Assembly (NCBI GenBank): GCA_965200875.1
Contig: OZ241456.1
Coordinates: 1,248,001 to 1,312,000, forward strand
From: Bdellovibrionales bacterium
GTDB lineage: Bacteria; Bdellovibrionota; Bdellovibrionia; Bdellovibrionales; UBA1609
Length of the DNA stretch: 64,000 bases
Reading direction: 5' to 3'
The notes below the pieces were generated by a model that saw only the letters and a program-made list of their open reading frames with translations, was not told the DNA's origin and made no database searches. A program made the position numbers and the translations under genes. Below, one piece after another: positions 1,114-16,217 of the stretch (position 1 is the stretch's first letter; every line of letters begins with the position of its first letter).

Positions 1114-1482
1114 TTACTTGATTTTTTTTATAAAAGATTTGGAGTTCTGTTCTCTTTGTTTTGTTATAGCCTCACGCTGTTTTGCTGATTCCTCAAGCCA
1201 ATTCGCCCGTTTCAAATTCGCCAATAACAAATCTGCACCGGTAAAATTCGACCCTCGAAGATATGCACCTCTCAAATTCGAAAAGTAAAAAGTCGCACCA
1301 CTAAAATTCGCTTCTGCTAAAAATAACTTGCTCAAATCCACACCTGATAAACTACAATTAGTCCGGCCAAGCTTATTTATATACTGTCTAAAATTATTAA
1401 TATTACAGGTAGACTCAGCCTCATTTTGGCCATAGCTCAAAGCACCTAAGCTTAAAAAAAGTAAAGCAATTATTAATCTCAT
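1114..1482 (-). CDS. Secreted pentapeptide-repeat protein (short, divergent C-terminus)
   Basis: Signal peptide MRLIIALLFLSLGALSYG; A(N/D)(L/F)xx repeats; start overlaps the upstream stop. Confidence 0.75.
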   Translation of the reverse strand: MRLIIALLFLSLGALSYGQNEAESTCNINNFRQYINKLGRTNCSLSGVDLSKLFLAEANFSGATFYFSNLRGAYLRGSNFTGADLLLANLKRANWLEESAKQREAITKQREQNSKSFIKKIK

Positions 1483-1906
1483 TAGTTACCTTCCTCATTT
1501 TCAAAAACAACAAAACCACTTACACCTTGTGAGGTTAAATAAGCACCCAAATCCGGATCAACTTTCGCATTGGTAAAATTCGCACTACGCAAATCCGCCC
1601 CAGTAAAAATCGCATTGCGCAAATTCGCACTACGCAAATTCGCTCTGTACAAATTCGCCCCGGTCAAATTCGCCCCGGTCAAATTCGTCGCCCACAAACC
1701 CGCATTACGCAAATTCGCACTACGCAAATCCGCATTACGCAAATTCGCTCTGTACAAATTCACTCTTTGCAAATCCGCACCTTGCAAATTCGCATAGCTC
1801 AAATTCATTCTGAACAAAAATGCCCCTTCCAAATCGCACTGATGATTTCCTAGCATATAGATATAGTCGCGATAATTATTAATATTACAGGTAGACTCAG
1901 CCTCAT
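1482..1906 (-). pseudogene. Pentapeptide-repeat paralogue lacking its signal-peptide region (residual ORF 1482-1856)
   Basis: Similarity to the paralogues (NEAESTCNINNY) extends to ~1906 and stops abruptly at a duplicated foreign segment; shared C-terminus AKVDP..YLTSQG.SGFVV. Confidence 0.7.
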
Positions 1907-2095
1907 TGACTTGTTTTCTGGGTGGAAGTCAGATCAAATGGTTACAGGGTAAAAGCATATATATTTGACTTTATGGCCTATTTTATTCACCATTCAGGGA
2001 GTTATGGAAAGTAATTTAACAAAACAACAGATCAATCACCTAACAGAAAGTGGCTTTACAGTCGAACAGGCAGAGGCTATTGTTCGAACCATAGA
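1907..2095 (+). repeat. ~190-bp near-identical direct copy of 4192-4382 (upstream region and first ~30 codons of the 4291 gene)
   Basis: Direct comparison, tgacttgttttctgggtggaagtc...gttcgaaccataga at both loci. Confidence 0.92.
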
Positions 2096-2133
2096 CAGGC
2101 TCTTCGTAAACCAAAAAGAGAGTTGTAGACATT

Positions 2134-2733
2134 CTACTGCATATTTGAGATAGCAGGAGCTTCTTCAACAACAACAAAACCACTTATACCTTGTGAGGTT
2201 AAATAAGTCGCCAAGGCCGGATCAACTTTCGCAGAGGTTAAAATTACCCCAGTCAAATCCGCCCCGGTCAGATTCGTATTACTCAAATCCGCCCCAGTCA
2301 TATTCGCATTGACCAAATTCGCCTCGTACAAATTCGCACCTCGCAAACTCGCATTGACCAAATACGCCACAGACAAATCCGCCATAGACAAATCCGCCAT
2401 AGACAAAATTGCCCTTTCCAAATTCGCCCCGAACAAATTCGCCCCGGTCAGATTCGTATTACTCAAATCCGCCCCAGTCAAATCCGCACTAAATAAATGT
2501 GCCACGGTCAAATTTGCATTACGCAAATTCGCATCGATCAAATTCGCATGACTCAAAATTGCATAAGACATATTCTCCTCTATCAAATCCGCTCCGCGCA
2601 AATCGCATTTATAATTTCCGGGAGTATAGATATAATCTCGATAATTATTAATATTACAGGTAGACTCAGACTCATTCTGTCCATAGCTCAAAGCACCTAA
2701 GCTTAAAAATAGTAAAGTAATTATTATTTTCAT
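2134..2733 (-). CDS. Secreted pentapeptide-repeat protein
   Basis: Signal peptide nearly identical to that of the 1114-1482 gene; long A(D/N)Lxx array; AAGGAGG RBS. Confidence 0.9.
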   Translation of the reverse strand: MKIIITLLFLSLGALSYGQNESESTCNINNYRDYIYTPGNYKCDLRGADLIEENMSYAILSHANLIDANLRNANLTVAHLFSADLTGADLSNTNLTGANLFGANLERAILSMADLSMADLSVAYLVNASLRGANLYEANLVNANMTGADLSNTNLTGADLTGVILTSAKVDPALATYLTSQGISGFVVVEEAPAISNMQ

Positions 2734-3000
2734 TAGTAACCTCCTTGTTTGGGTTTATTTGCATAATACAGGTGTTTATGAAAAACACTTAATAAAAAAA
2801 CAAGTCCGGGTAATATTTACACGAAAAAATAACTGGAATCATAAAGACATGGGGGACAATGTCCATCGCTTGGGTGGATGACCATTTTTTCTGGGATTTC
2901 AGTTTTTCGCTCTAAGCACTTGAAATAACAAAGCTTTTCACCATCAGAAACTCGATTTTTCTTATCAAAAAAGAAGCTGGCCAATATTTCTAAAAACGAA

Positions 3001-3029
3001 AAAGCCCGTCTGAGATAGACAGGCTCTTT
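3001..3029 (-). terminator. Rho-independent terminator downstream of 3063-3977
   Basis: Minus strand AGCCTGTCT-loop-AGACGGGCT-TTTT (one G-U pair). Confidence 0.6.
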
Positions 3030-3062
3030 CTAAACAAAGGAAGTTATGAAAATTAAGAGAAT

Positions 3063-3977
3063 TTAGAAAAATTTTACTAGAGGTGCTTCAACAACAACAA
3101 AACCACTTACACCCTGTGCTTCTAAATATTCCACTTGGTATGGTCTAACTTTCGCCCCGGTAAAATCTGCACCGCTCAAGTCCATTTCTTTAAAAATCGC
3201 TTCGTACAAAATTGCATTTGTAAAATTCGCATTGTTCACATTTGAATTTTGCAATCTCATATTAAACAAATCCGCATTGGTAAAATCTGCACCGCTCAAA
3301 TCTGCATTTACAAATCTTGCTCTAGGTAACTCCGCATCAGTTAAATTTGCACCGGACAAATTTGCCTCTTCAAAATTTGAATCTATAGCCTGTATATTTG
3401 ACATATTAGCACCGGACAAATCTGCCTTATAAAAAGTAGAAAAATTCAAAATCGCACCGCTCAAATCCTTTTCACGCAAATCTGCACCGCTCAAATCACA
3501 CCTAAATGGAACATCTGTCTTATATCTATATTCATCAAAATAATTATTAATACCACATGAATAATTAGTTTTATATCTCTTCCGATCGGCTTGCGAGCCC
3601 CTAACACTAGTAGTAAAACCAGTAAGAAATGTAAAAAGTCTCGATATGAATCCTTGATTATCTAAGTAATTACTGCTTACGCTATTAAGCTTTTGAATCT
3701 TGTACGCGTCCGGTTCTGTCGGCAGGCGCAGTTTAGTACCTTGAAAATTTGTACCTTGTAAATTTGCACCTTGTAAATTCGCATCTTTAAAAGTAGGGCT
3801 TTTTCTATACAAATCTATTCTTGCACCTTCATTTCTCCGGTCTTCTTCTGTACCATGATCACCAGCTGATAATTCTCTCTTAGTGATTCCAGCCCCTCCT
3901 ACAAAAAACAAGACAGCCGACAATAAAAAACCAAAACCAAAGCCAATTAATACATTTTTATTCATTATCTTTTTCAT
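3063..3977 (-). CDS. Membrane-anchored or secreted pentapeptide-repeat protein
   Basis: N-terminal hydrophobic segment, two blocks of pentapeptide repeats, shared ...QGVSGFVVVEA C-terminus. Confidence 0.88.
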   Translation of the reverse strand: MKKIMNKNVLIGFGFGFLLSAVLFFVGGAGITKRELSAGDHGTEEDRRNEGARIDLYRKSPTFKDANLQGANLQGTNFQGTKLRLPTEPDAYKIQKLNSVSSNYLDNQGFISRLFTFLTGFTTSVRGSQADRKRYKTNYSCGINNYFDEYRYKTDVPFRCDLSGADLREKDLSGAILNFSTFYKADLSGANMSNIQAIDSNFEEANLSGANLTDAELPRARFVNADLSGADFTNADLFNMRLQNSNVNNANFTNAILYEAIFKEMDLSGADFTGAKVRPYQVEYLEAQGVSGFVVVEAPLVKFF

Positions 3978-4120: not shown

Positions 4121-4290
4121 ACGGAAGTGGATCACCATTTTTTCTCTGACCAAAATTACATAAAAAGACAGTTTTTAAGTTATTGAATCACTGACTTGTT
4201 TTCTGGGTGGAAGTCAGATCAAATGGTTACAGGGTAAAAGCATATATATATTTGACTTTTTGTCCTGTTTCATTCACCATTCAGGGAGTT

Positions 4291-4707
4291 ATGGAAAGTA
4301 ATTTAACAAAACAACAGATCAATCACCTAACAGAAAGTGGCTTTACAGTCGAACAGGCAGAGGCTATTGTTCGAACCATAGAACAAAGAGCTGTCAATAA
4401 AAAAGATCTGGAGCTTTTGAAAAAAGATTTAAAGCTTTGGACTTTAGGGGTTGTAATAAGTGGATTCGTTTTATTTGCAGGCTTTATAAGTTATCTGGAT
4501 AGCAAAACCAACGCACGGCTGGACAATATGGAATCTCAAACCAGCTCACGCCTTGACAACATAGAATCCCGATTCAACGAAAGATTTAATAAAATAGACG
4601 AAAGATTTAACAGAATAGAAGCAGACATAAAAACTTTATTACTGCTGAACTCTCCAAATTCACATAAGATAAAAACAAATAAAAACAAATCAGAAGATAT
4701 TAAATAA
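4291..4707 (+). CDS. Coiled-coil membrane protein (DUF1640-like)
   Basis: L.ESGFT.EQAEAIV motif, one TM segment, heptad repeats (RFNKIDERFNRIE); GGGAG RBS before ATG 4291. Confidence 0.7.
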   Translation: MESNLTKQQINHLTESGFTVEQAEAIVRTIEQRAVNKKDLELLKKDLKLWTLGVVISGFVLFAGFISYLDSKTNARLDNMESQTSSRLDNIESRFNERFNKIDERFNRIEADIKTLLLLNSPNSHKIKTNKNKSEDIK

Positions 4708-4939
4708 TCATCCGTGATAAAGGTGTTAACACATTTAATTAACAGCTTTTTTAAGAGAATGTGCCATAATCAACTAATCAAGCTTTGACTCTATCTTATC
4801 CATACGCTTTTTCATACGCGCTTGATTGGCTTTTACTGGTTGTATTTGCCAATTCATTTAATAGGTTTTTCACATCCAAATATTTAGTCGCCAGTGAACT
4901 TGTGAGATTTTTAATCCTTTGACTTTACACGGTGGCCTA

Positions 4940-5404
4940 TCATGGTAACAACTTTGAATGTTTTTTGTATTCTTGATATATTTTGCCTCGAGGTTTTTTT
5001 ATTATCTCAGAGTTTGTAAAGTCTTCATGTAACTTTTTATCACCTCCACTGCGACTAAATAACAATCTGGATTTTTCCTCCACTAAAGCTATAGCAATAA
5101 TATGTGTATCGTTAGACTTCAATGTTACATTGTTTATAACTCTGTTATTATTATCAATCTCCTTTTTCTTTTCTTTTGAAGAGGTTTGATAAGCTCCTCC
5201 ACTGTTCTTTAACAGACTCACCATCTTAAGCATACAACTATCCTTTTGTATTTCCTCTAAACTCTTTTCATCATCACCATATACTAATATTAATGTCTGT
5301 TTTTGAATACATTGATGAACAGGTTTTGAATCTTCATGCTCTGGATCCACAAATTTATGAAAAGCTTCCGCATCAACAAGTATTCCCTTTTTTGATAATC
5401 CCAT
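4940..5404 (-). CDS. PIN-like domain protein (putative ribonuclease/toxin)
   Basis: ILVDA at the N-terminus, EE, SNDTHIIAIA and SRSGGDKKL give the PIN acidic-residue pattern. Confidence 0.65.
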   Translation of the reverse strand: MGLSKKGILVDAEAFHKFVDPEHEDSKPVHQCIQKQTLILVYGDDEKSLEEIQKDSCMLKMVSLLKNSGGAYQTSSKEKKKEIDNNNRVINNVTLKSNDTHIIAIALVEEKSRLLFSRSGGDKKLHEDFTNSEIIKKPRGKIYQEYKKHSKLLP

Positions 5405-5435
5405 AATATTTCCTTAAAAGATAGTATTATACAGG

Positions 5436-6710
5436 TCAATCTTTCAAACCCAGAAGTTTGTAATCTTCTGATAGAAAAAAAGTCTGATAGCTGTCCGGTT
5501 GATTGTTCATGTTTCCATTTCGATCAATAGTGACAGGATAGATTTTTGCTTCTCCATTTTTCAGTTCAAAATAAAGTATTAAAAAATCTTCAGGTCGTAG
5601 CTTTTCTTCTTTGATTTCAATACGCGCCCTTTGAATGATATGATCACTATGAGTTTCACAAATAAATTTATATTTTTCTTTGTGTTTATTTATCATATTA
5701 ACCATAAGAGAGGCAAATTCAGCTTCCACTCTTGGGTGTAAATGAGTTTCTGGTTGTTGCATTAAAAAAGTGTTGTATTTTTCTGAATCTGAAATAAACA
5801 AATTTGCCAATACAGGTAAAAATTGGCTCACCCCATAACCAACATTTGTAATATCTGATGTTAATTCGTCAACTGTTATTTTTATTGAAAATGGTGATTC
5901 ACTATTATTCTTATCTAGGATATCTATATCCAAATTTTGAAAAAGTTTTGAATTTTTACCGAATTTATTAAACTCTTCGCGGATTTCATTCCAGTTATTA
6001 TTTTTCTTCATCTCTGCTAGTTTACATAAAACATAGGATGGATCTGTAGTTTTAACTTCTGTACGATCATATTGGACTTTCGGCTTTAAATGGATCGGAT
6101 CAAGTAGATTACAAGATATATTTTTTAAATTTCCACTTTCCTTAAACCTTACAAGAGAAGTTACTTTTGAATGTAAAACTTTATTTTTTTCAAGCTCTTT
6201 TTTTAGCTCGTTACACAAAAAAGAAATTACTCCAAAAAAGTGAATAGAGAAATGAGCAGGTGTTGTAGCGCTATAACTCTTTTGTCCATTTACAAGAATC
6301 TCCATCATACTGTATTTCTTTAAGTTTACTTCTATACTGTTTTCAGAGCAATGTATTAAAATTTTCTCGCAAGATTTTCCATTTTTTATTGAATATTCCA
6401 CATCCCAAATATTTTGTTCTCCAAGTTTTAAAGTGGCTCCTATGTTCACTATATCAGTATTACCTTGGTTTCTCACAATATACTTGGACCCTCCAAGATA
6501 TTTATAAGTTGTTCCTTTTAATAAATCTTCTATAGATGAAGGCTTTACTGGGTTGTCTGCATACAACAAATCATGGATAAGTTTATAAGCAGATAAGAAT
6601 GTTGTTTTTCCTGTATTATTTTCACCGACAATGATAGTGATAGGACAAATTGCGGTTTTCGATTCAGGAAAACATCTTAAGTTTTTTATCCTTACTTCAT
6701 TGATTTGCAT
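5436..6710 (-). CDS. ABC-type (AAA_15/AAA_21-like) ATPase with DUF3696-like C-terminus
   Basis: IKNLRCF, Walker A GENNTGKT, signature-like VGYGVSQ, Walker B/D-loop LMQQPETHLHP, H-loop ETHS; GGAGG RBS before ATG 6710. Confidence 0.88.
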   Translation of the reverse strand: MQINEVRIKNLRCFPESKTAICPITIIVGENNTGKTTFLSAYKLIHDLLYADNPVKPSSIEDLLKGTTYKYLGGSKYIVRNQGNTDIVNIGATLKLGEQNIWDVEYSIKNGKSCEKILIHCSENSIEVNLKKYSMMEILVNGQKSYSATTPAHFSIHFFGVISFLCNELKKELEKNKVLHSKVTSLVRFKESGNLKNISCNLLDPIHLKPKVQYDRTEVKTTDPSYVLCKLAEMKKNNNWNEIREEFNKFGKNSKLFQNLDIDILDKNNSESPFSIKITVDELTSDITNVGYGVSQFLPVLANLFISDSEKYNTFLMQQPETHLHPRVEAEFASLMVNMINKHKEKYKFICETHSDHIIQRARIEIKEEKLRPEDFLILYFELKNGEAKIYPVTIDRNGNMNNQPDSYQTFFLSEDYKLLGLKD

Positions 6711-6712
6711 AA

Positions 6713-8146
6713 CTACCTCCATAGTTTAAAAATCATATTCAATAAATTTCTTTTTTCAAATTTTACATCTTCTTGTAATACTTTAATACGACTGACATCC
6801 CCTTTTCCAACAATACTTAAAAAATAACACTCCCTATTGCAAGAGGATTCGTATTTATTCATTTGCCCTGATAAAAAATTATATTCCACTCTATCTAATT
6901 TTGGCCACCAGTCCTTAAATAATAAAAAACGTATCATCATTAACACTTCTATACTGGATAAATGTTGACTGAATGGAAAAACATTTTCATTTCCAAATCC
7001 TCGGCTTGAATGTAAATGTTCAATATAGGAAGGGTCTTCTAAAGAACCGTCAAGTTCCATAGATACATCTGAAGTTGTATACTGCTTTCTGCATAACATA
7101 CATTTGTGCCCATAAGTGACAATGTGAGCGTTCCATCGAGCATCAGAAAATTTATCATGCCGTTTGTTCACTGCAATGCCTCCATCAATAACAGGTATTA
7201 AGTGAGCATAAGCTATATGATTTAAAATATCTCTCGCCAGTGGTTTATCTACACAACTGAAAATAATATCACAATCCAAAGCCGCTTTGAACGCAGACCT
7301 TGATTGTATAGGTTGTATGAGAGATTTTACTTTCACATTTTCATTCACAGAATGTTTCAGCATCTTGGTTCTAAAGAATTCAGTCTTGAATTTTCCAATA
7401 TCTTTTTTGGTGGCATAAAGCAATCTGTCCAAATTATGCTCTTCAATTTTATCGTGATCTATTAAAACAACATTTCCGATTCCTATTCTCGCCAAATTCT
7501 CAACAACCATTGAACCCACACTGCCCACACCTACGATCCCCACTGTCATCCTGTTGATTTTTAATTGCTCATCCAATCCCCAAGTTTCAATAGTCCTCTT
7601 TAAAATATTTTTATTTTGAAATGTACTATATGCCTGCTCATTAAATGTAACTTTTAAACAACTTCCAATTACTTTCACTTTATTACACCAAAATCGCTTG
7701 AATGCTCTGTCCTTCTGTTTTATCCAAAATCTGGCACTCCAACTTTCATCTGTACCTAGTGTTAAACCAACCAAAGGCATATTTGTGCTGTTAGCAGGTG
7801 ATGCTATGCGATCTTTTTCCGCAATAATATCCGGTCCACTCATATCCTGCCATCCCTCTGTTGGATGACTATGCATAAAAGCAAGTCCCGCTTTCTTTTT
7901 TATAGCTATTCGTAATGAACGAGCTAAAAATTGTGGTAGAAAACTTGTATTGCCATGAAGTTCCCGTTCATCTTCTTCAGGGAGAATAATCTCAGAGATA
8001 AGAGCTGTTGTCTTACTCATACCATTACAAGGATACCAAAGCGCGAAACATAACTCTTCCTGATGCTCATTTTGCTTAAAATGAGACAACAAATGGTTGC
8101 AGGCAATGCTGTGAGCTTTTTCTGTTAAAGTAACTTCATATTTCAT
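6713..8146 (-). CDS. JAB/MPN peptidase fused to a ThiF/E1-like adenylating enzyme
   Basis: N-terminal E...HSHP-x6-S-x2-D JAB motif; C-terminal GVGSVG, DHDKIEEHNLDR, SCVD, CxxC and CxxxC; ATG 8146 overlaps the upstream TGA. Confidence 0.88.
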   Translation of the reverse strand: MKYEVTLTEKAHSIACNHLLSHFKQNEHQEELCFALWYPCNGMSKTTALISEIILPEEDERELHGNTSFLPQFLARSLRIAIKKKAGLAFMHSHPTEGWQDMSGPDIIAEKDRIASPANSTNMPLVGLTLGTDESWSARFWIKQKDRAFKRFWCNKVKVIGSCLKVTFNEQAYSTFQNKNILKRTIETWGLDEQLKINRMTVGIVGVGSVGSMVVENLARIGIGNVVLIDHDKIEEHNLDRLLYATKKDIGKFKTEFFRTKMLKHSVNENVKVKSLIQPIQSRSAFKAALDCDIIFSCVDKPLARDILNHIAYAHLIPVIDGGIAVNKRHDKFSDARWNAHIVTYGHKCMLCRKQYTTSDVSMELDGSLEDPSYIEHLHSSRGFGNENVFPFSQHLSSIEVLMMIRFLLFKDWWPKLDRVEYNFLSGQMNKYESSCNRECYFLSIVGKGDVSRIKVLQEDVKFEKRNLLNMIFKLWR

Positions 8147-8565
8147 AAGTGCTTCCAAAAATTTCTTAAATGAGACTCAAAAAAGGTATGCAAACTTTTT
8201 TTTGAATTATCCAAGCCATCCCATATATCTTGAGGTGGACGACTAAGTGTCATCCAGTTTTCTCCACTATGTTCATACTGTTCATGTATCTGACCTATTT
8301 TTTGTATTTCCTCTTCACTAAATTCCTCTGTTTTTAAATGTATAAAATGAGGTGGTAATCTTGGATAATCACTTAGTGGCAGTTCTATACCTATTGTGAT
8401 TTTCTTCTTCTCTAGGGAACCACAGGGAATGACATACTTAAATACACATAGGTAACCATCTCTTTTTGAAGATAAGTTCCGGTTTTTCATATCTTGTATC
8501 TGCTGTAACTCACAAGAGAGAATCTTTTTTATTTCTTTTTGGATTTGATTCGTTAAATTTTCCAC
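8143..8565 (-). CDS. Prokaryotic E2/UBC-like protein
   Basis: LP..DYP..PP motif followed by W..LSRP...W; lies between the Ubl and JAB-E1 genes. Confidence 0.72.
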   Translation of the reverse strand: MENLTNQIQKEIKKILSCELQQIQDMKNRNLSSKRDGYLCVFKYVIPCGSLEKKKITIGIELPLSDYPRLPPHFIHLKTEEFSEEEIQKIGQIHEQYEHSGENWMTLSRPPQDIWDGLDNSKKSLHTFFESHLRNFWKHL

Positions 8566-8569
8566 TGAA

Positions 8570-9037
8570 TTATGCTACAGGAGTTGGTCCAGAAGACAGA
8601 GCTAAAAACTCATCTCCAGTTTGAACGGTTATTTCTTCGTGCGAGTTTGTATAATCTGTGTTTGTTTTGGCATTAAATAGTTTGAATTTATCCACCGGAA
8701 CAAATTTTGCTTTTTCAAGTATTTGAGTAACTGTCAGCTTATTATCTGAAGCTGAAATTTCTTGTTTTTCCCCATTGACAGTATAATATATTTTTACATC
8801 CTGTATTTTATGTTCAATGGAAAATACATCATCATTTTTAATTTCCAACTTTTTATGCAAGTCATCCTTTGCTGGTCCATTCCATACTTCCTGTTTTTTA
8901 TCTCCTTGAATTTTAAAAATAACATAAGCAGGATAAGGTTCCTGTTTCTGTCCAAGCTCTAAAATATCTTTAGGAGTTATAAAAGACTCAGACCATAGCT
9001 TTTCTTGACCATCTATTTTTATATGTATTTCAACCAT
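8570..9037 (-). CDS. Multi-ubiquitin-domain protein (two beta-grasp/Ubl domains)
   Basis: Two repeats of the pattern I.IDG/Y.VNG...(I/L)T...ILE...(I/V)..(D/G)D.F; ends SSGPTPVA; alternative start 9085. Confidence 0.78.
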   Translation of the reverse strand: MVEIHIKIDGQEKLWSESFITPKDILELGQKQEPYPAYVIFKIQGDKKQEVWNGPAKDDLHKKLEIKNDDVFSIEHKIQDVKIYYTVNGEKQEISASDNKLTVTQILEKAKFVPVDKFKLFNAKTNTDYTNSHEEITVQTGDEFLALSSGPTPVA

Positions 9038-9180
9038 ACCAACAACACCAATGTATTTTTTCAGAGACTTCTGCCAATTTTCCATACCTTACAAGAATTT
9101 CCCTTTCAAGTCCAGAACGAGATATTTTTATTGACAATTTTTTGCTCTTTCACTGATATTTTTTGTAAGACAACAAGATT

Positions 9181-13513: not shown

Positions 13514-13589
13514 GACCCGCTAGCTCAGTTGGTAGAGCATCTCCCTTTTAAGGAGAGGGTCCTTGGTTCGAGCCCAAGGCGGGTCACCA
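13514..13589 (+). tRNA. tRNA-Lys(UUU)
   Basis: Cloverleaf: acceptor GACCCGC/GCGGGTC, anticodon arm TCTCC-CTTTTAA-GGAGA, TTCGA T-loop, encoded CCA. Confidence 0.96.
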
Positions 13590-13592
13590 CTA

Positions 13593-13667
13593 GTTCCCTT
13601 CGTCTAGCGGTCAGGATGTCACCCTTTCACGGTGAAGACACGGGTTCGATTCCCGTAGGGAACGCCA
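13593..13667 (+). tRNA. tRNA-Glu(UUC)
   Basis: Acceptor GTTCCCT/AGGGAAC, anticodon arm TCACC-CTTTCAC-GGTGA, TTCGA T-loop, encoded CCA. Confidence 0.96.
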
Positions 13668-14212
13668 TATATTTTGTAACTAATTGAAATAACTTGTAAT
13701 TTTTCTATCACTGATCACTTGGCAGAGGAAATTTAACTAATAGCGTCATAAATTCTCAAAAAAATGCCCCTTGAACCTTTATACTTTCAACCTTTATAGG
13801 AGTTGTCCGTGATAAACCTTTATAGGAAGTAGCTCGTGAAAAAACCTTTCCTAAACTGAAAGAATCTCTAAGAGCTTTCAGTCCCTTGAAAACGGGAATC
13901 TTGTTGAATTTTAGGGAAATGTTCAAAATAAATAACAGGCAGGTTGTATATAATGATGAAAAATAAAATTAATCAACTTTCTTTTTTTGAAGAAACAAAA
14001 TTATCGAATCATCTCTTCAAGAAATTTGAAGAGATCCATAATTATATATATGCCAATGAGGGGCTATCTGAACAACAAGTTTTAGAGGAGATTATAAAAA
14101 TTTTATTTATAAAGTTTTATGATGAACAAAAAAATAGTGACAGGTTTTACATTTCAAAAACAGATTTTTTAAATATAAATTCCAAAAAAACTGGAGTGGC
14201 CCCTATTTTTGG

Positions 14213-15100
14213 CTACCTCATTTGTGTTGATTTAATATACTCCACAGGTGACTTCATGCCAAGTGCTGAATGGGGAGCTTTATGGTTATAATCATATATC
14301 CATTCTTTTAATAATTTCATAGTGTCTTCAGCACAGGAGCAGTCATTCACATACACATAATCTCGTTTTATTGTCTTTACAAAAGCCTCTGCCATACCAT
14401 TACTCTCTGGACTGTAAGCCCTCGTAAAACAAGGCTTTAAACCCAGCTGGCGGGCCAATACCTGCACATTATACGCTCTGTAAATACTCCCTCGATCCGA
14501 TAAAAATTCAATCTCTCTATTTGTTCGACAAGCATCAAATCGCCCTTCTACAGCACTAATCATCAAACCCTGTATGTCTTCTTCTGATAAAAGAGGCTTT
14601 AACGACGCCGTAAAGCTTAAAATCTCCCTGTCACATGTGTCTAACACAAAAGAAACATACACCTTCTCTCCATTAAAACAATGAATTTCAAAACAATCAG
14701 AACACCACCTCGTATTGGAATACAATGTCATCACTTTTCCTGTACTCTTATGCCCTTCCCTTCTGCTGACAGCTTTGGGTAACAAAAGGCCATTTTCTTT
14801 CATTACACGATAAATACGCTTCTTATTATACTTGCTTAAACCCTTTAAAACCCTCTCCTTGTTGTAAAGAGCCGTTACACGCTTGTAACCATAAGTGGGA
14901 CGATCCTTTATCACAGCTCTTATCCCTGATAAAATTTGCTTATCTTTATCCTTTATCTTCATCTTAACACTTCTCCTCTCACTCACTTTGTAAAGAGACT
15001 TTGGATGAATCCCTATTAACTCACAAAATCTTTTTTTACAGCAGATCGCTGAGCAGTGGATGATAAACTCTTTTGCAAATTCAGTTTTTCTTCCCTCCAC
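14213..15100 (-). CDS. IS3-family transposase OrfB (DDE), reached by -1 frameshift
   Basis: YGYKRV, RWCSDCFE, LDTCDRE, LSDRGS, SPESNGMAEAFVKTIKRDY; A-AAA-AAG slippery site at ~15100-15106 in the orfA frame. Confidence 0.92.
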   Translation of the reverse strand: MEGRKTEFAKEFIIHCSAICCKKRFCELIGIHPKSLYKVSERRSVKMKIKDKDKQILSGIRAVIKDRPTYGYKRVTALYNKERVLKGLSKYNKKRIYRVMKENGLLLPKAVSRREGHKSTGKVMTLYSNTRWCSDCFEIHCFNGEKVYVSFVLDTCDREILSFTASLKPLLSEEDIQGLMISAVEGRFDACRTNREIEFLSDRGSIYRAYNVQVLARQLGLKPCFTRAYSPESNGMAEAFVKTIKRDYVYVNDCSCAEDTMKLLKEWIYDYNHKAPHSALGMKSPVEYIKSTQMR

Positions 15101-15402
15101 TTTTTTTTCATAAACTCATTCCATTGCTTAAGAGTGGTGATATCCAATGCTTGATCAGCTACAGTATGCTTTAAACGAGAGTTCTCCACCTTTAAACGAT
15201 TTATCTCTAAAAGCAATTCCTCTTGGTCTAATCCTGTTGCTTTCTTTTCTCTGCGCATTTTCTCTCTCCTCCATTGATAAATAGTTGCGGCTTGAATCTG
15301 ATACTTCCGTGATAATTCGGAAATACTGAGACCACCTTGAAAATGCTCTGAAAGTATCAAAAATCTTTGATTTTTTGAAATCTTTTTGGAAAATCTATCC
15401 AT
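15016..15402 (-). CDS. IS3-family transposase OrfA (HTH)
   Basis: SISELSRKYQI...IYQWRR HTH plus zipper; GGAGG RBS. Confidence 0.9.
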   Translation of the reverse strand: MDRFSKKISKNQRFLILSEHFQGGLSISELSRKYQIQAATIYQWRREKMRREKKATGLDQEELLLEINRLKVENSRLKHTVADQALDITTLKQWNEFMKKKWREEKLNLQKSLSSTAQRSAVKKDFVS

Positions 15403-16217
15403 TTTACCTCCTTTTAGAAGGTAGCCAAATTTTGGGGGTCAAGAACATAATCGATGAAGATTTTAGTGCAGTGATATCAGATTACAATCAATTTTTAAAA
15501 ACATCTTCTACAAAATCCAATTCATCCTTCTGCATTAAAGCACAGAAATTAAATAGAAGATTTGATTACACATATCATCTCCCTGCAAATCGCAAACTAA
15601 TAAAACAATTAAAACAATTAAACTCTGTTTATCTTTTTGAGCTAGCTGATATTGTAAAGACAAAATCAACATTTTTAAAAAATAAAATTGTTAACTACAT
15701 TGAACTTTCAGATGTATATACGAATTCATTTGAAATTATTAACTCAGCAGGAATAGCTGTTAATAAGCTACCCAGTAGAGCCAGTTATGAACTAAAAACA
15801 GGGGATATTATTACGGCTGTTGCGGGTAATGCCATAGGAACTCATAAACACACTACTGCCTATGTCACAGAGGAATTTAACCATTCAATTTGCACAAATG
15901 GTTTTCGTGTATTAAGAAACTTCAGAATTAATCCATTTTATCTTTTGTATTATTTTCAAAGTGATTTATTTTTGAAGCAGGTATTTATGTATCGGACAGG
16001 AGCAGCCATTCCAGCATTATCAGATGAAGATTTCAGTAAAATTTTAATATATATTCCACCTGAAAAGGAAATGAAACAAATCAGCTTGACTGTGAAAAAA
16101 AGTTTTTATTTAAGACAAAAAGCCAAAAATGAAATGAAGAATATCACCTTAACTGAAATAAACCCATAAACACAGCTATATTTATATCTTTTTTATTACT
16201 GCCCATCTTCATAGATA

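Follow-up and report, generated by a model that had tools for sequence, protein, structure and literature searches.

A mobile five-gene cassette joins a Bub-like ubiquitin-like conjugation operon to an ABC ATPase-PIN pair

Results

A conserved composite cassette in Bdellovibrionales

A stretch of 64,000 nucleotides (nt) from the Bdellovibrionales bacterium assembly GCA_965200875.1 (contig OZ241456.1, positions 1,248,001 to 1,312,000; hereafter the window) carries five genes encoding a ubiquitin-like protein (Ubl), an E2-like protein, a fusion of a JAB peptidase with an E1 adenylation domain (JAB-E1), an ABC ATPase and a putative PIN RNase (Table 1). We report here that this cassette is a real and conserved composite of two known kinds of module, a Bub-like conjugation core and an ATPase-PIN pair resembling HEC-03. 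Comparison of related loci indicates that the linkage of the Ubl core with the pair is old and that the two have travelled together between several bacterial phyla, and suggests that ubiquitin-like tagging may control a putative cell-suicide antiviral response. An earlier note, made from the letters of this DNA alone, knew of no description of the five-gene combination; we likewise found none of it, or of the link to DUF2971 described below, in a literature in which subscription journals were thinly covered; Gong et al. and Millman et al. deal with Bil and Bub alone. The exchange of the slot after E1 for a DUF2971-like gene, the order of lineages in the trees and the loss of a motif from the ATPase are additions of this analysis.

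When the open reading frames (ORFs) were re-read, all five were found to be intact and on the minus strand, with the layout and spacings that the note had given. The Ubl and E2 genes are 4 nt apart, the E2 and JAB-E1 genes share an ATGA overlap, and the ATPase and PIN genes are separated by 31 nt, while the junction between E1 and the ATPase measures 2 nt, with a GGAGG at 6720-6716 within the 3' end of the E1 gene. Longer starts proposed by the ORF tool at 9085, 8158 and 6722 had no backing from homologues.

Table 1. Genes of the cassette, its extent and an example of the alternative gene after E1 (positions in the window unless a locus is named)
Feature	Position	Strand	Description
Ubl (BubA-like)	8570..9037	-	155 aa; two predicted beta-grasp domains; C-terminus G150-P-T-P-V-A155
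E2 (BubB-like UBC fold)	8143..8565	-	140 aa, GTG start; without catalytic Cys
JAB peptidase-E1 adenylation domain fusion	6713..8146	-	477 aa
ABC-clade ATPase	5436..6710	-	424 aa; AAA_15/AAA_21, OLD-like
PIN (VapC-fold) putative RNase	4940..5404	-	154 aa
Mobile cassette extent	4938..9120	-	DNA similarity to six Bdellovibrionales copies
DUF2971-like gene (example)	L033:9463-10467	-	gene after JAB-E1

The neighbourhoods of homologous operons were surveyed in the 80 best genome loci (of 142) and the 80 best metagenome loci (of 90). This revealed E2 before E1 in 80/80 genome loci and the complete five-gene order in 12 loci, namely the window, 7/80 genome loci, 3/80 metagenome loci and one further locus in a Paracoccaceae genome (G470) that was found when 45 genomes were searched with the ATPase of locus L075. 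The earlier note had staked its proposal on homologous Ubl operons occurring with such a pair, and the neighbourhood check showed that they do. The hosts belong to Bdellovibrionota, Acidobacteriota and Pseudomonadota, in addition to metagenome contigs, with E1 identity to the window falling as low as 43%, and the junction between E1 and the ATPase lies between -19 and +3 nt in 12/12 loci. The closest cassettes are those of Bdellovibrionales metagenome-assembled genomes (MAGs). Among seven close Bdellovibrionales-type copies, DNA similarity spans the five genes and then stops, the flanks being unrelated; against six Bdellovibrionales copies, similarity ends at 4938-4998 on one side and at 9032-9123 on the other. 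Alignment of these flanks revealed no conserved repeat or att-like end. Chance adjacency was ruled out by the 12 loci together with the turnover of flanks. Purifying selection acts on each of the genes, the ratios of nonsynonymous to synonymous substitution (dN/dS) being 0.12-0.33 across three comparisons per gene with three relatives. The cassette is patchily distributed, being present in 5/15 genomes of the genus and in 1/401 of a phylum sample, the 400 other phylum genomes of which gave no E2 match, and a close ATPase was found in the same 4/15 genus genomes as a close E1.

The conjugation core resembles Bub

A structural model of the E2 (predicted local distance difference test score, pLDDT, of 85) had BubB as its best structural match (Z 9.1, root-mean-square deviation 3.5, 119 aligned), followed in a wide structure search mostly by E2/UBC-fold chains. 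The UBC fold on which the earlier note had relied is therefore borne out, with the model closest to BubB. A Foldseek search with the model gave no match at E 0.001, and a PDB sequence search with the E2 profile returned nothing significant. Ser108 is present in 81/81 E2s within a W-x-x-x-S-R-P-P motif, of which the last four positions read SRPP in 79, SRAP in one and SFPP in one, and three histidines, H73, H76 and H132, are invariant.

The JAB-E1 protein matches ThiF in Pfam, and a profile of it finds Citrobacter BubCD (positions 6-404, E 2.7e-38) well before any other E1. Across 141 unique full-length homologues, the Zn-peptidase residues H92, H94, S103 and D106 of the JAB domain are present in 141/141 and E30 in 138/141, and the adenylation residues G206/G208/G211, D230, R241 and K254 are invariant. 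The Zn cysteines of the E1 are C349/C352/C436/C440, and Cys298, a conserved residue next to the ATP site, is shared with BubCD. In the crossover loop, Tyr374 is found in 141/141 homologues and a Cys anywhere within residues 353-390 in 2/141. Tyr370 of BubCD is required for conjugation, as the Y370F substitution abolishes it (Ye et al., 10.1101/2024.11.21.623953). The alignment does not fix the register between Y374 and Y370: HMMER sets Y374 on a BubCD Tyr that lies 8 residues before the catalytic Y370, where the alignment of this loop is broken by gaps, and an Ile directly follows both Y374 and Y370. Viral contigs probed with a single E1 gave 8 pattern matches, none of which was confirmed.

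The Multi_ubiq profile of Pfam matched the window Ubl weakly (E 0.014), matched 7/12 Ubl homologues (best 1.3e-6) and was also found in Atlas clusters, while a PDB sequence search with the Ubl profile returned nothing significant. The C-terminus was counted over 78 ORFs, chosen by their C-terminal pattern from 81 loci; it reads T-x-[VI]-A in 77/78, with a short tail beyond the Ala in 13, and outside the window's clade it ends in V-S or V-A. At one locus (L015:7294-8004) the Ubl is fused to E2 straight after T-P-V-A, which is the arrangement of BubAB and supports cleavage after the Ala. Taken together, Ala155 is probably the activated, mature end of the Ubl, rather than a Gly, with the caveat that G150 is invariant across the 12 five-gene loci, where cleavage after it is conceivable. 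Cleavage after Gly150 was ruled out as a rule of the family, a Gly six residues from the end being present in only 25/78 ORFs.

The ATPase-PIN pair and its free-standing relatives

The ATPase has a Walker A lysine (K35), a degenerate Walker B motif (Q318-Q319-P-E) and H354, and Walker B reads QQPE in 43/49 members of the family. As both acidic residues of Walker B are lost, general ABC chemistry suggests weak hydrolysis, and the protein may bind ATP more than it hydrolyses it. A PADLOC model labelled HEC-03B matches residues 249-408 (E 5e-26) but is only the fourth best, being outscored by the NsnB, PDC-M55A and AriA models; AriA and PtuA models or structures also match. No similarity was detected between the ATPase and the E1 profile. 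The model of the partner protein (pLDDT 94) matches VapC (E 4.8e-4, probability 1.0), so the PIN fold assigned to it at first reading holds. Its acidic residues D11, E51, D99, D122 and D128 are invariant in 11 Ubl-linked homologues, a set that leaves out locus L005, where the gene is frameshifted. The PIN matched no PADLOC model, the window copy gave no Pfam match, and the PADLOC models for HEC-03 matched 0/9 PIN members.

An R-S...T...E-G motif is absent from 13/13 ATPases of the Ubl-linked lineages, whereas its R, S, T, E and G are kept in 35, 32, 33, 31 and 35, respectively, of 35 stand-alone ATPases; as a regular expression it was found in 0/13 of the former versus 30/35 of the latter. These counts leave out L199, which is divergent, and L220, a duplicate. 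Only the Walker regions could be aligned structurally, so that the lost motif falls outside the aligned part, and the Ubl-linked ATPases sit on long stems in the tree.

The wider family of stand-alone ABC ATPase and PIN genes (L101-L110; L200-L223) is widespread, shares the QQPE Walker B and is often present in several copies per genome. At L110:7464-7608, an isolated fragment of the five-gene cassette, the first third of its PIN gene, lies near an insertion sequence (IS)-like ORF.

The slot after E1 and the history of the linkage

The position after E1 is occupied by ATPase-PIN in 7/80 genome loci, by a DUF2971-like gene in 66/80 and by neither in 7/80; in the metagenome loci the corresponding figures are 3/80, 11/80 (several of them identical) and 66/80. 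Many contigs among the 66 partnerless metagenome loci are short, and for the 35 loci with at least 1.5 kb downstream no recurring partner was found in the 40/53 downstream ORFs that were scanned. The DUF2971-type four-gene cassette (L009-L082) is commoner than the window's version and spans many phyla of sponge-type MAGs. Both types are present in one genome in two cases (L006/L041 and L058/L224). Matches of the slot gene to DUF2971 in Pfam are weak (E about 0.002, below the cut-off, in 3/4 tested) and a PDB sequence search with its profile returned nothing significant. The gene product has the conserved motifs H-Y-T, S-F, W-x-x-Y-G and E-x-E. A search of the window's genome revealed no DUF2971-like gene. 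DUF2971 has been described as ADP-ribosyltransferase-like (PMC12522546), and Aristaios, a DUF2971 protein, as a single-gene, antiphage abortive-infection system (PMC11381338).

E1 trees were rooted on environmental three-gene operons and leave out L068 and L080, which have a broken E1, as well as metagenome E1s that are split or shorter than 400 aa; one tree was built after dropping two of every three genome DUF2971 rows, and for another 38 rows were picked by hand. The ATPase-PIN lineages formed two successive basal branches of a clade (support 100), with the DUF2971 operons nested inside it (support 97). For the five non-Bdellovibrionales loci, the pairings L075+L117 and L129+L191 recurred in the trees of all three proteins, E1, ATPase and PIN. 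A single origin of the Ubl-linked rows was not rejected by the approximately unbiased (AU) test (p-AU 0.60 for the ATPase and 0.44 for the PIN), and the constrained ATPase tree scored higher. The simplest history suggested by these trees is one capture of ATPase-PIN followed by a later swap to DUF2971, although long branches and compositional bias leave room for two captures.

Does the Ubl pathway control the pair?

The earlier note had left a choice between one system and two defence modules fused into one transcript. Something of each stood: the comparisons indicate that the ATPase-PIN pair was a free-standing module in origin, and that it has long been kept with the Ubl lineage and has changed there. 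We give nearly an even chance to the reading in which the five genes are one antiphage system of the abortive-infection type, its ATPase-PIN effector tied to the Ubl pathway. This reading draws on the five-gene order in 12 loci, the junction kept in all of them, the loss of the ATPase motif, the order of the E1 tree, the recurring pairings, the exchange of the slot and purifying selection, and on the reported antiphage activity of both HEC-03 and Aristaios.

By analogy with Bub, the E1 would adenylate the C-terminus of the Ubl, probably at Ala155, and the Ubl would be passed through an oxyester on Tyr374 to Ser108 of the E2, which would attach it to a target with no need of an E3; trimming of tails, removal of tags or both may fall to the JAB domain. 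The ABC ATPase would hold the PIN RNase off while reading the state of the Ubl pathway, responding either to the appearance of conjugates or to a phage that blocks the pathway, and the freed PIN would then cleave RNA and halt the cell under infection; that the whole serves defence is likewise what we infer. In the sister branch, the same slot is taken by a DUF2971 protein with a putative ADP-ribosyltransferase fold. A more specific proposal is put forward with low confidence: the pathway would serve for signalling, as a switch, and not to block phage assembly directly. In it, an Ala-ended, two-domain Ubl moving through Tyr/Ser oxyesters would be read by a re-tooled, hydrolysis-poor ATPase that frees the PIN, and the effector slot would be exchangeable, with ATPase-PIN as its ancestral occupant and an ADP-ribosyltransferase-fold protein in the large sister branch found across sponge-type microbiomes.

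Several observations weigh against a single system. The three-gene core is widespread without a fixed partner, as in the 66/80 metagenome loci, and the pair is complete on its own: 12/12 paralogous loci carry ATPase and PIN without Ubl genes nearby, and at 25 further places the PIN was present in 20 and an E1 within 1.5 kb in none. The PIN of the L005 cassette is frameshifted, and at L099 an orthologous ATPase (77%) stands alone beside a ribosomal RNA-like region. The DUF2971-like gene is convergent to E1 in 57/66 loci, mostly with a 35-nt overlap with the E1 end, and co-oriented in 9; lying on the opposite strand in most, it does not represent the same kind of linkage as ATPase-PIN. Left unconstrained, the trees of the ATPase and of the PIN place the Ubl-linked rows in two separate groups, and every tree is uncertain owing to long branches and base composition bias. 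As a separate observation, the isolated ATPase of L099 (L099:8586-9991) keeps short stubs of both neighbouring genes.

That each half occurs without the other would be accounted for if the mobile cassette brought together, and co-expressed, two layers of defence whose mechanisms are independent. The Bub-like core would then tag a phage protein, as in Bil, while the HEC-03-like pair senses phage by itself, and the halves would stay together through shared transfer and regulation or because complementary protection is selected. Cassette neighbourhoods include restriction-modification, TIR, helix-turn-helix (HTH)/ImmA and abortive infection (Abi) genes, in keeping with such an assembly of layers, and the frequency of DUF2971 partly reflects one ancestral join, because most loci share the same 35-nt overlap with E1. 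However, the flanks turn over fully among the seven close copies while the five genes stay, the junction persists even where E1 identity has dropped to 43%, and an otherwise near-invariant ATPase motif is lost in both Ubl-linked groups. We regard independent layers as a tentative but serious possibility, somewhat short of an even chance.

In a third arrangement, the ATPase or the PIN would itself be the target of conjugation, kept silent by constitutive tagging and set free when infection leads to loss of the tag. Such a scheme reverses the polarity of the one-system reading, and an imbalance between JAB and E1 could also unleash the toxin pair. Two different putative toxins fill the slot, and BubE, the negative regulator of Bub, was not found in the window's genome, both of which would suit such silencing. 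No Lys or other acceptor specific to the Ubl-linked ATPases or PINs was found, however, the columns being confined to G, F, L and A, F. As the core also occurs without any toxin, we consider this arrangement improbable.

Finally, the cassette might serve a role other than phage defence, such as a stress response, a symbiosis in which proteins of a host animal or prey are tagged, or sulfur carriage. The targets of Bub are stated to be unknown (Gong et al.), which leaves room for such roles. Many hosts are named as sponge-associated lineages, and sponge metagenome runs hold near-identical pieces of the window; we take sponges to be the habitat of these host lineages. Patchy presence, spread over many phyla, defence-type neighbours and toxin-like partners all point the other way, as does the presence of an E2, which sulfur transfer does not require, and a non-defence role appears very improbable to us. 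We retain the one-system reading as a working proposal.

Genome setting of the cassette

The genome to which the window belongs is 1.87 Mb in size, with 37% GC and 94.5% completeness, and encodes a stand-alone ATPase and PIN twice more (C1:936480-938251, L001; C1:471190-469475, L002). The upstream neighbour of the cassette is an MscS gene at a distance of 260 nt. Downstream lies a convergent ORF of 166 aa (window 4207-4707) that is repeated in the genome, with a 97% full copy at C1:850477-850975 and partial copies elsewhere, including window 1922-2095. A promoter and terminator scan gave 14 promoter-like sites versus 19.7 expected and 4 terminator-like sites versus 1.5 expected, two of these four on the minus strand inside genes, and was uninformative.

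Near-identical pieces spanning the window stretch were found in contigs from three runs, all sponge metagenomes belonging to a single study. One run, X1, holds a second cassette copy, about 83% identical over window 5180-9000 and with deeper coverage than the window's own, which presumably comes from a related strain or species. At other loci, the operon has another E2-like match close by (L010, L014, L043, L059, L077, L079 and L081); in L010, L014 and L059 this is an upstream tandem Ubl-E2 repeat, and in the others it lies downstream on the opposite strand. HTH and/or ImmA/IrrE-type peptidase genes, which we take to be CapH/CapP-like, lie upstream of the operon in L011, L042, L043, L077-L079, L081 and L082 and in the plasmid loci L113, L114 and L116, and are absent from the window.

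Elsewhere in the window, positions 1114-3977 hold four ORFs on the minus strand, of which three contain pentapeptide-type repeats (confirmed by Pfam for 3063-3977), adjoining a YhgA-like/Rpn gene at 8-1054. After tRNA-Lys and tRNA-Glu genes, positions 13514-16169 hold an ORF that resembles the beginning of a type I restriction-modification gene and is split by an IS-like element at 14213-15402 (IS3-like by eye) and followed by a Methylase_S gene.

Discussion

Implications

What Bub and type II Bil conjugate, and to what effect, is stated to be unknown (Gong et al.). A Bub-like core joined to a toxin-like module makes this question directly testable, because the module names candidate partners and offers a read-out, either protection from phage or growth arrest that depends on the PIN; the exchange of ATPase-PIN for DUF2971 in nature serves as an internal control. 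Ubiquitin chemistry would, if true, be extended by a beta-grasp modifier whose activated residue is a C-terminal Ala and by a Ser E2 lacking the S-x-H dyad. A signalling switch would parallel the ubiquitin-triggered cell-death signalling of animals and would name candidate readers of Bub-type tags. If the halves prove independent, the result is still an undescribed composite cassette, of modest interest.

Comparison with known systems

The earlier note had placed the Ubl, E2 and JAB-E1 genes among Bil and Bub operons; the second attribution holds, in that the core is Bub-like in its Tyr and Ser residues while lacking BubE, and the first does not. The Citrobacter type I Bub operon (6E.1; PDB 9ea4, 9eav) is organized as BubAB-BubCD-BubE, and BubE, a negative regulator of Bub, is present in all Bub operons (Ye et al., 10.1101/2024.11.21.623953). 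Like Bub, the window's operon has a fused JAB-E1 with the same Zn-peptidase residues, an invariant crossover-loop Tyr and no crossover-loop Cys, a UBC-fold E2 with an invariant Ser, and a Ubl of several beta-grasp domains. Separate Ubl and E2 genes do not set it apart, because Table S1 of the same paper has type I Bub operons with this arrangement. Unlike Bub, it lacks BubE/DUF6527: PF20137 was not found in the window's genome (94.5% complete) or in G065, but is present and unlinked in 4/5 other cassette carriers. In addition, the E2 reads S-R-P-P here, with S-x-P in 81/81 and its invariant histidines elsewhere, versus S-x-H plus an Asp in Bub; the Ubl ends in T-x-V-A, probably also its end after processing, whereas that of Bub ends in Gly; the E1 keeps the CxxC Zn ligands, none of which are seen in BubCD in our alignment; and the core is coupled to ATPase-PIN or DUF2971.

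With Bil, the operon shares a two-domain Ubl and the functions of E2, JAB and E1. Bil depends on a Gly at the C-terminus and a Cys in the E1 (Millman et al., 10.1101/2022.05.11.491447) and has separate JAB and E1 genes (Gong et al.). Membership of Bil type I or II was ruled out by the fused JAB-E1 and the missing crossover-loop Cys, and the end of the Ubl is probably Ala.

The sister branch resembles Aristaios in the weak DUF2971 match of the slot gene; Aristaios differs in being a single-gene system, and the window's genome has no such gene. PARIS (AriA-AriB) and Septu (PtuA-PtuB), to which the pair had initially been likened, also combine an ABC-clade ATPase with a nuclease partner. Those partners are a TOPRIM (AriB) and an HNH (PtuB) nuclease, however, and membership of either system was ruled out, as the partner here folds as a PIN and has no PADLOC match. 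The closest design is instead that of HEC-03, an antiphage pair of ABC ATPase and PIN in which both genes are needed (Payne et al., 10.1101/2024.01.29.577857). The window's pair shares the two-gene plan of an ABC ATPase with a VapC-like PIN, and differs from HEC-03 in a PIN that matches none of its models, in the QQ of Walker B and in being joined to a Ubl operon.

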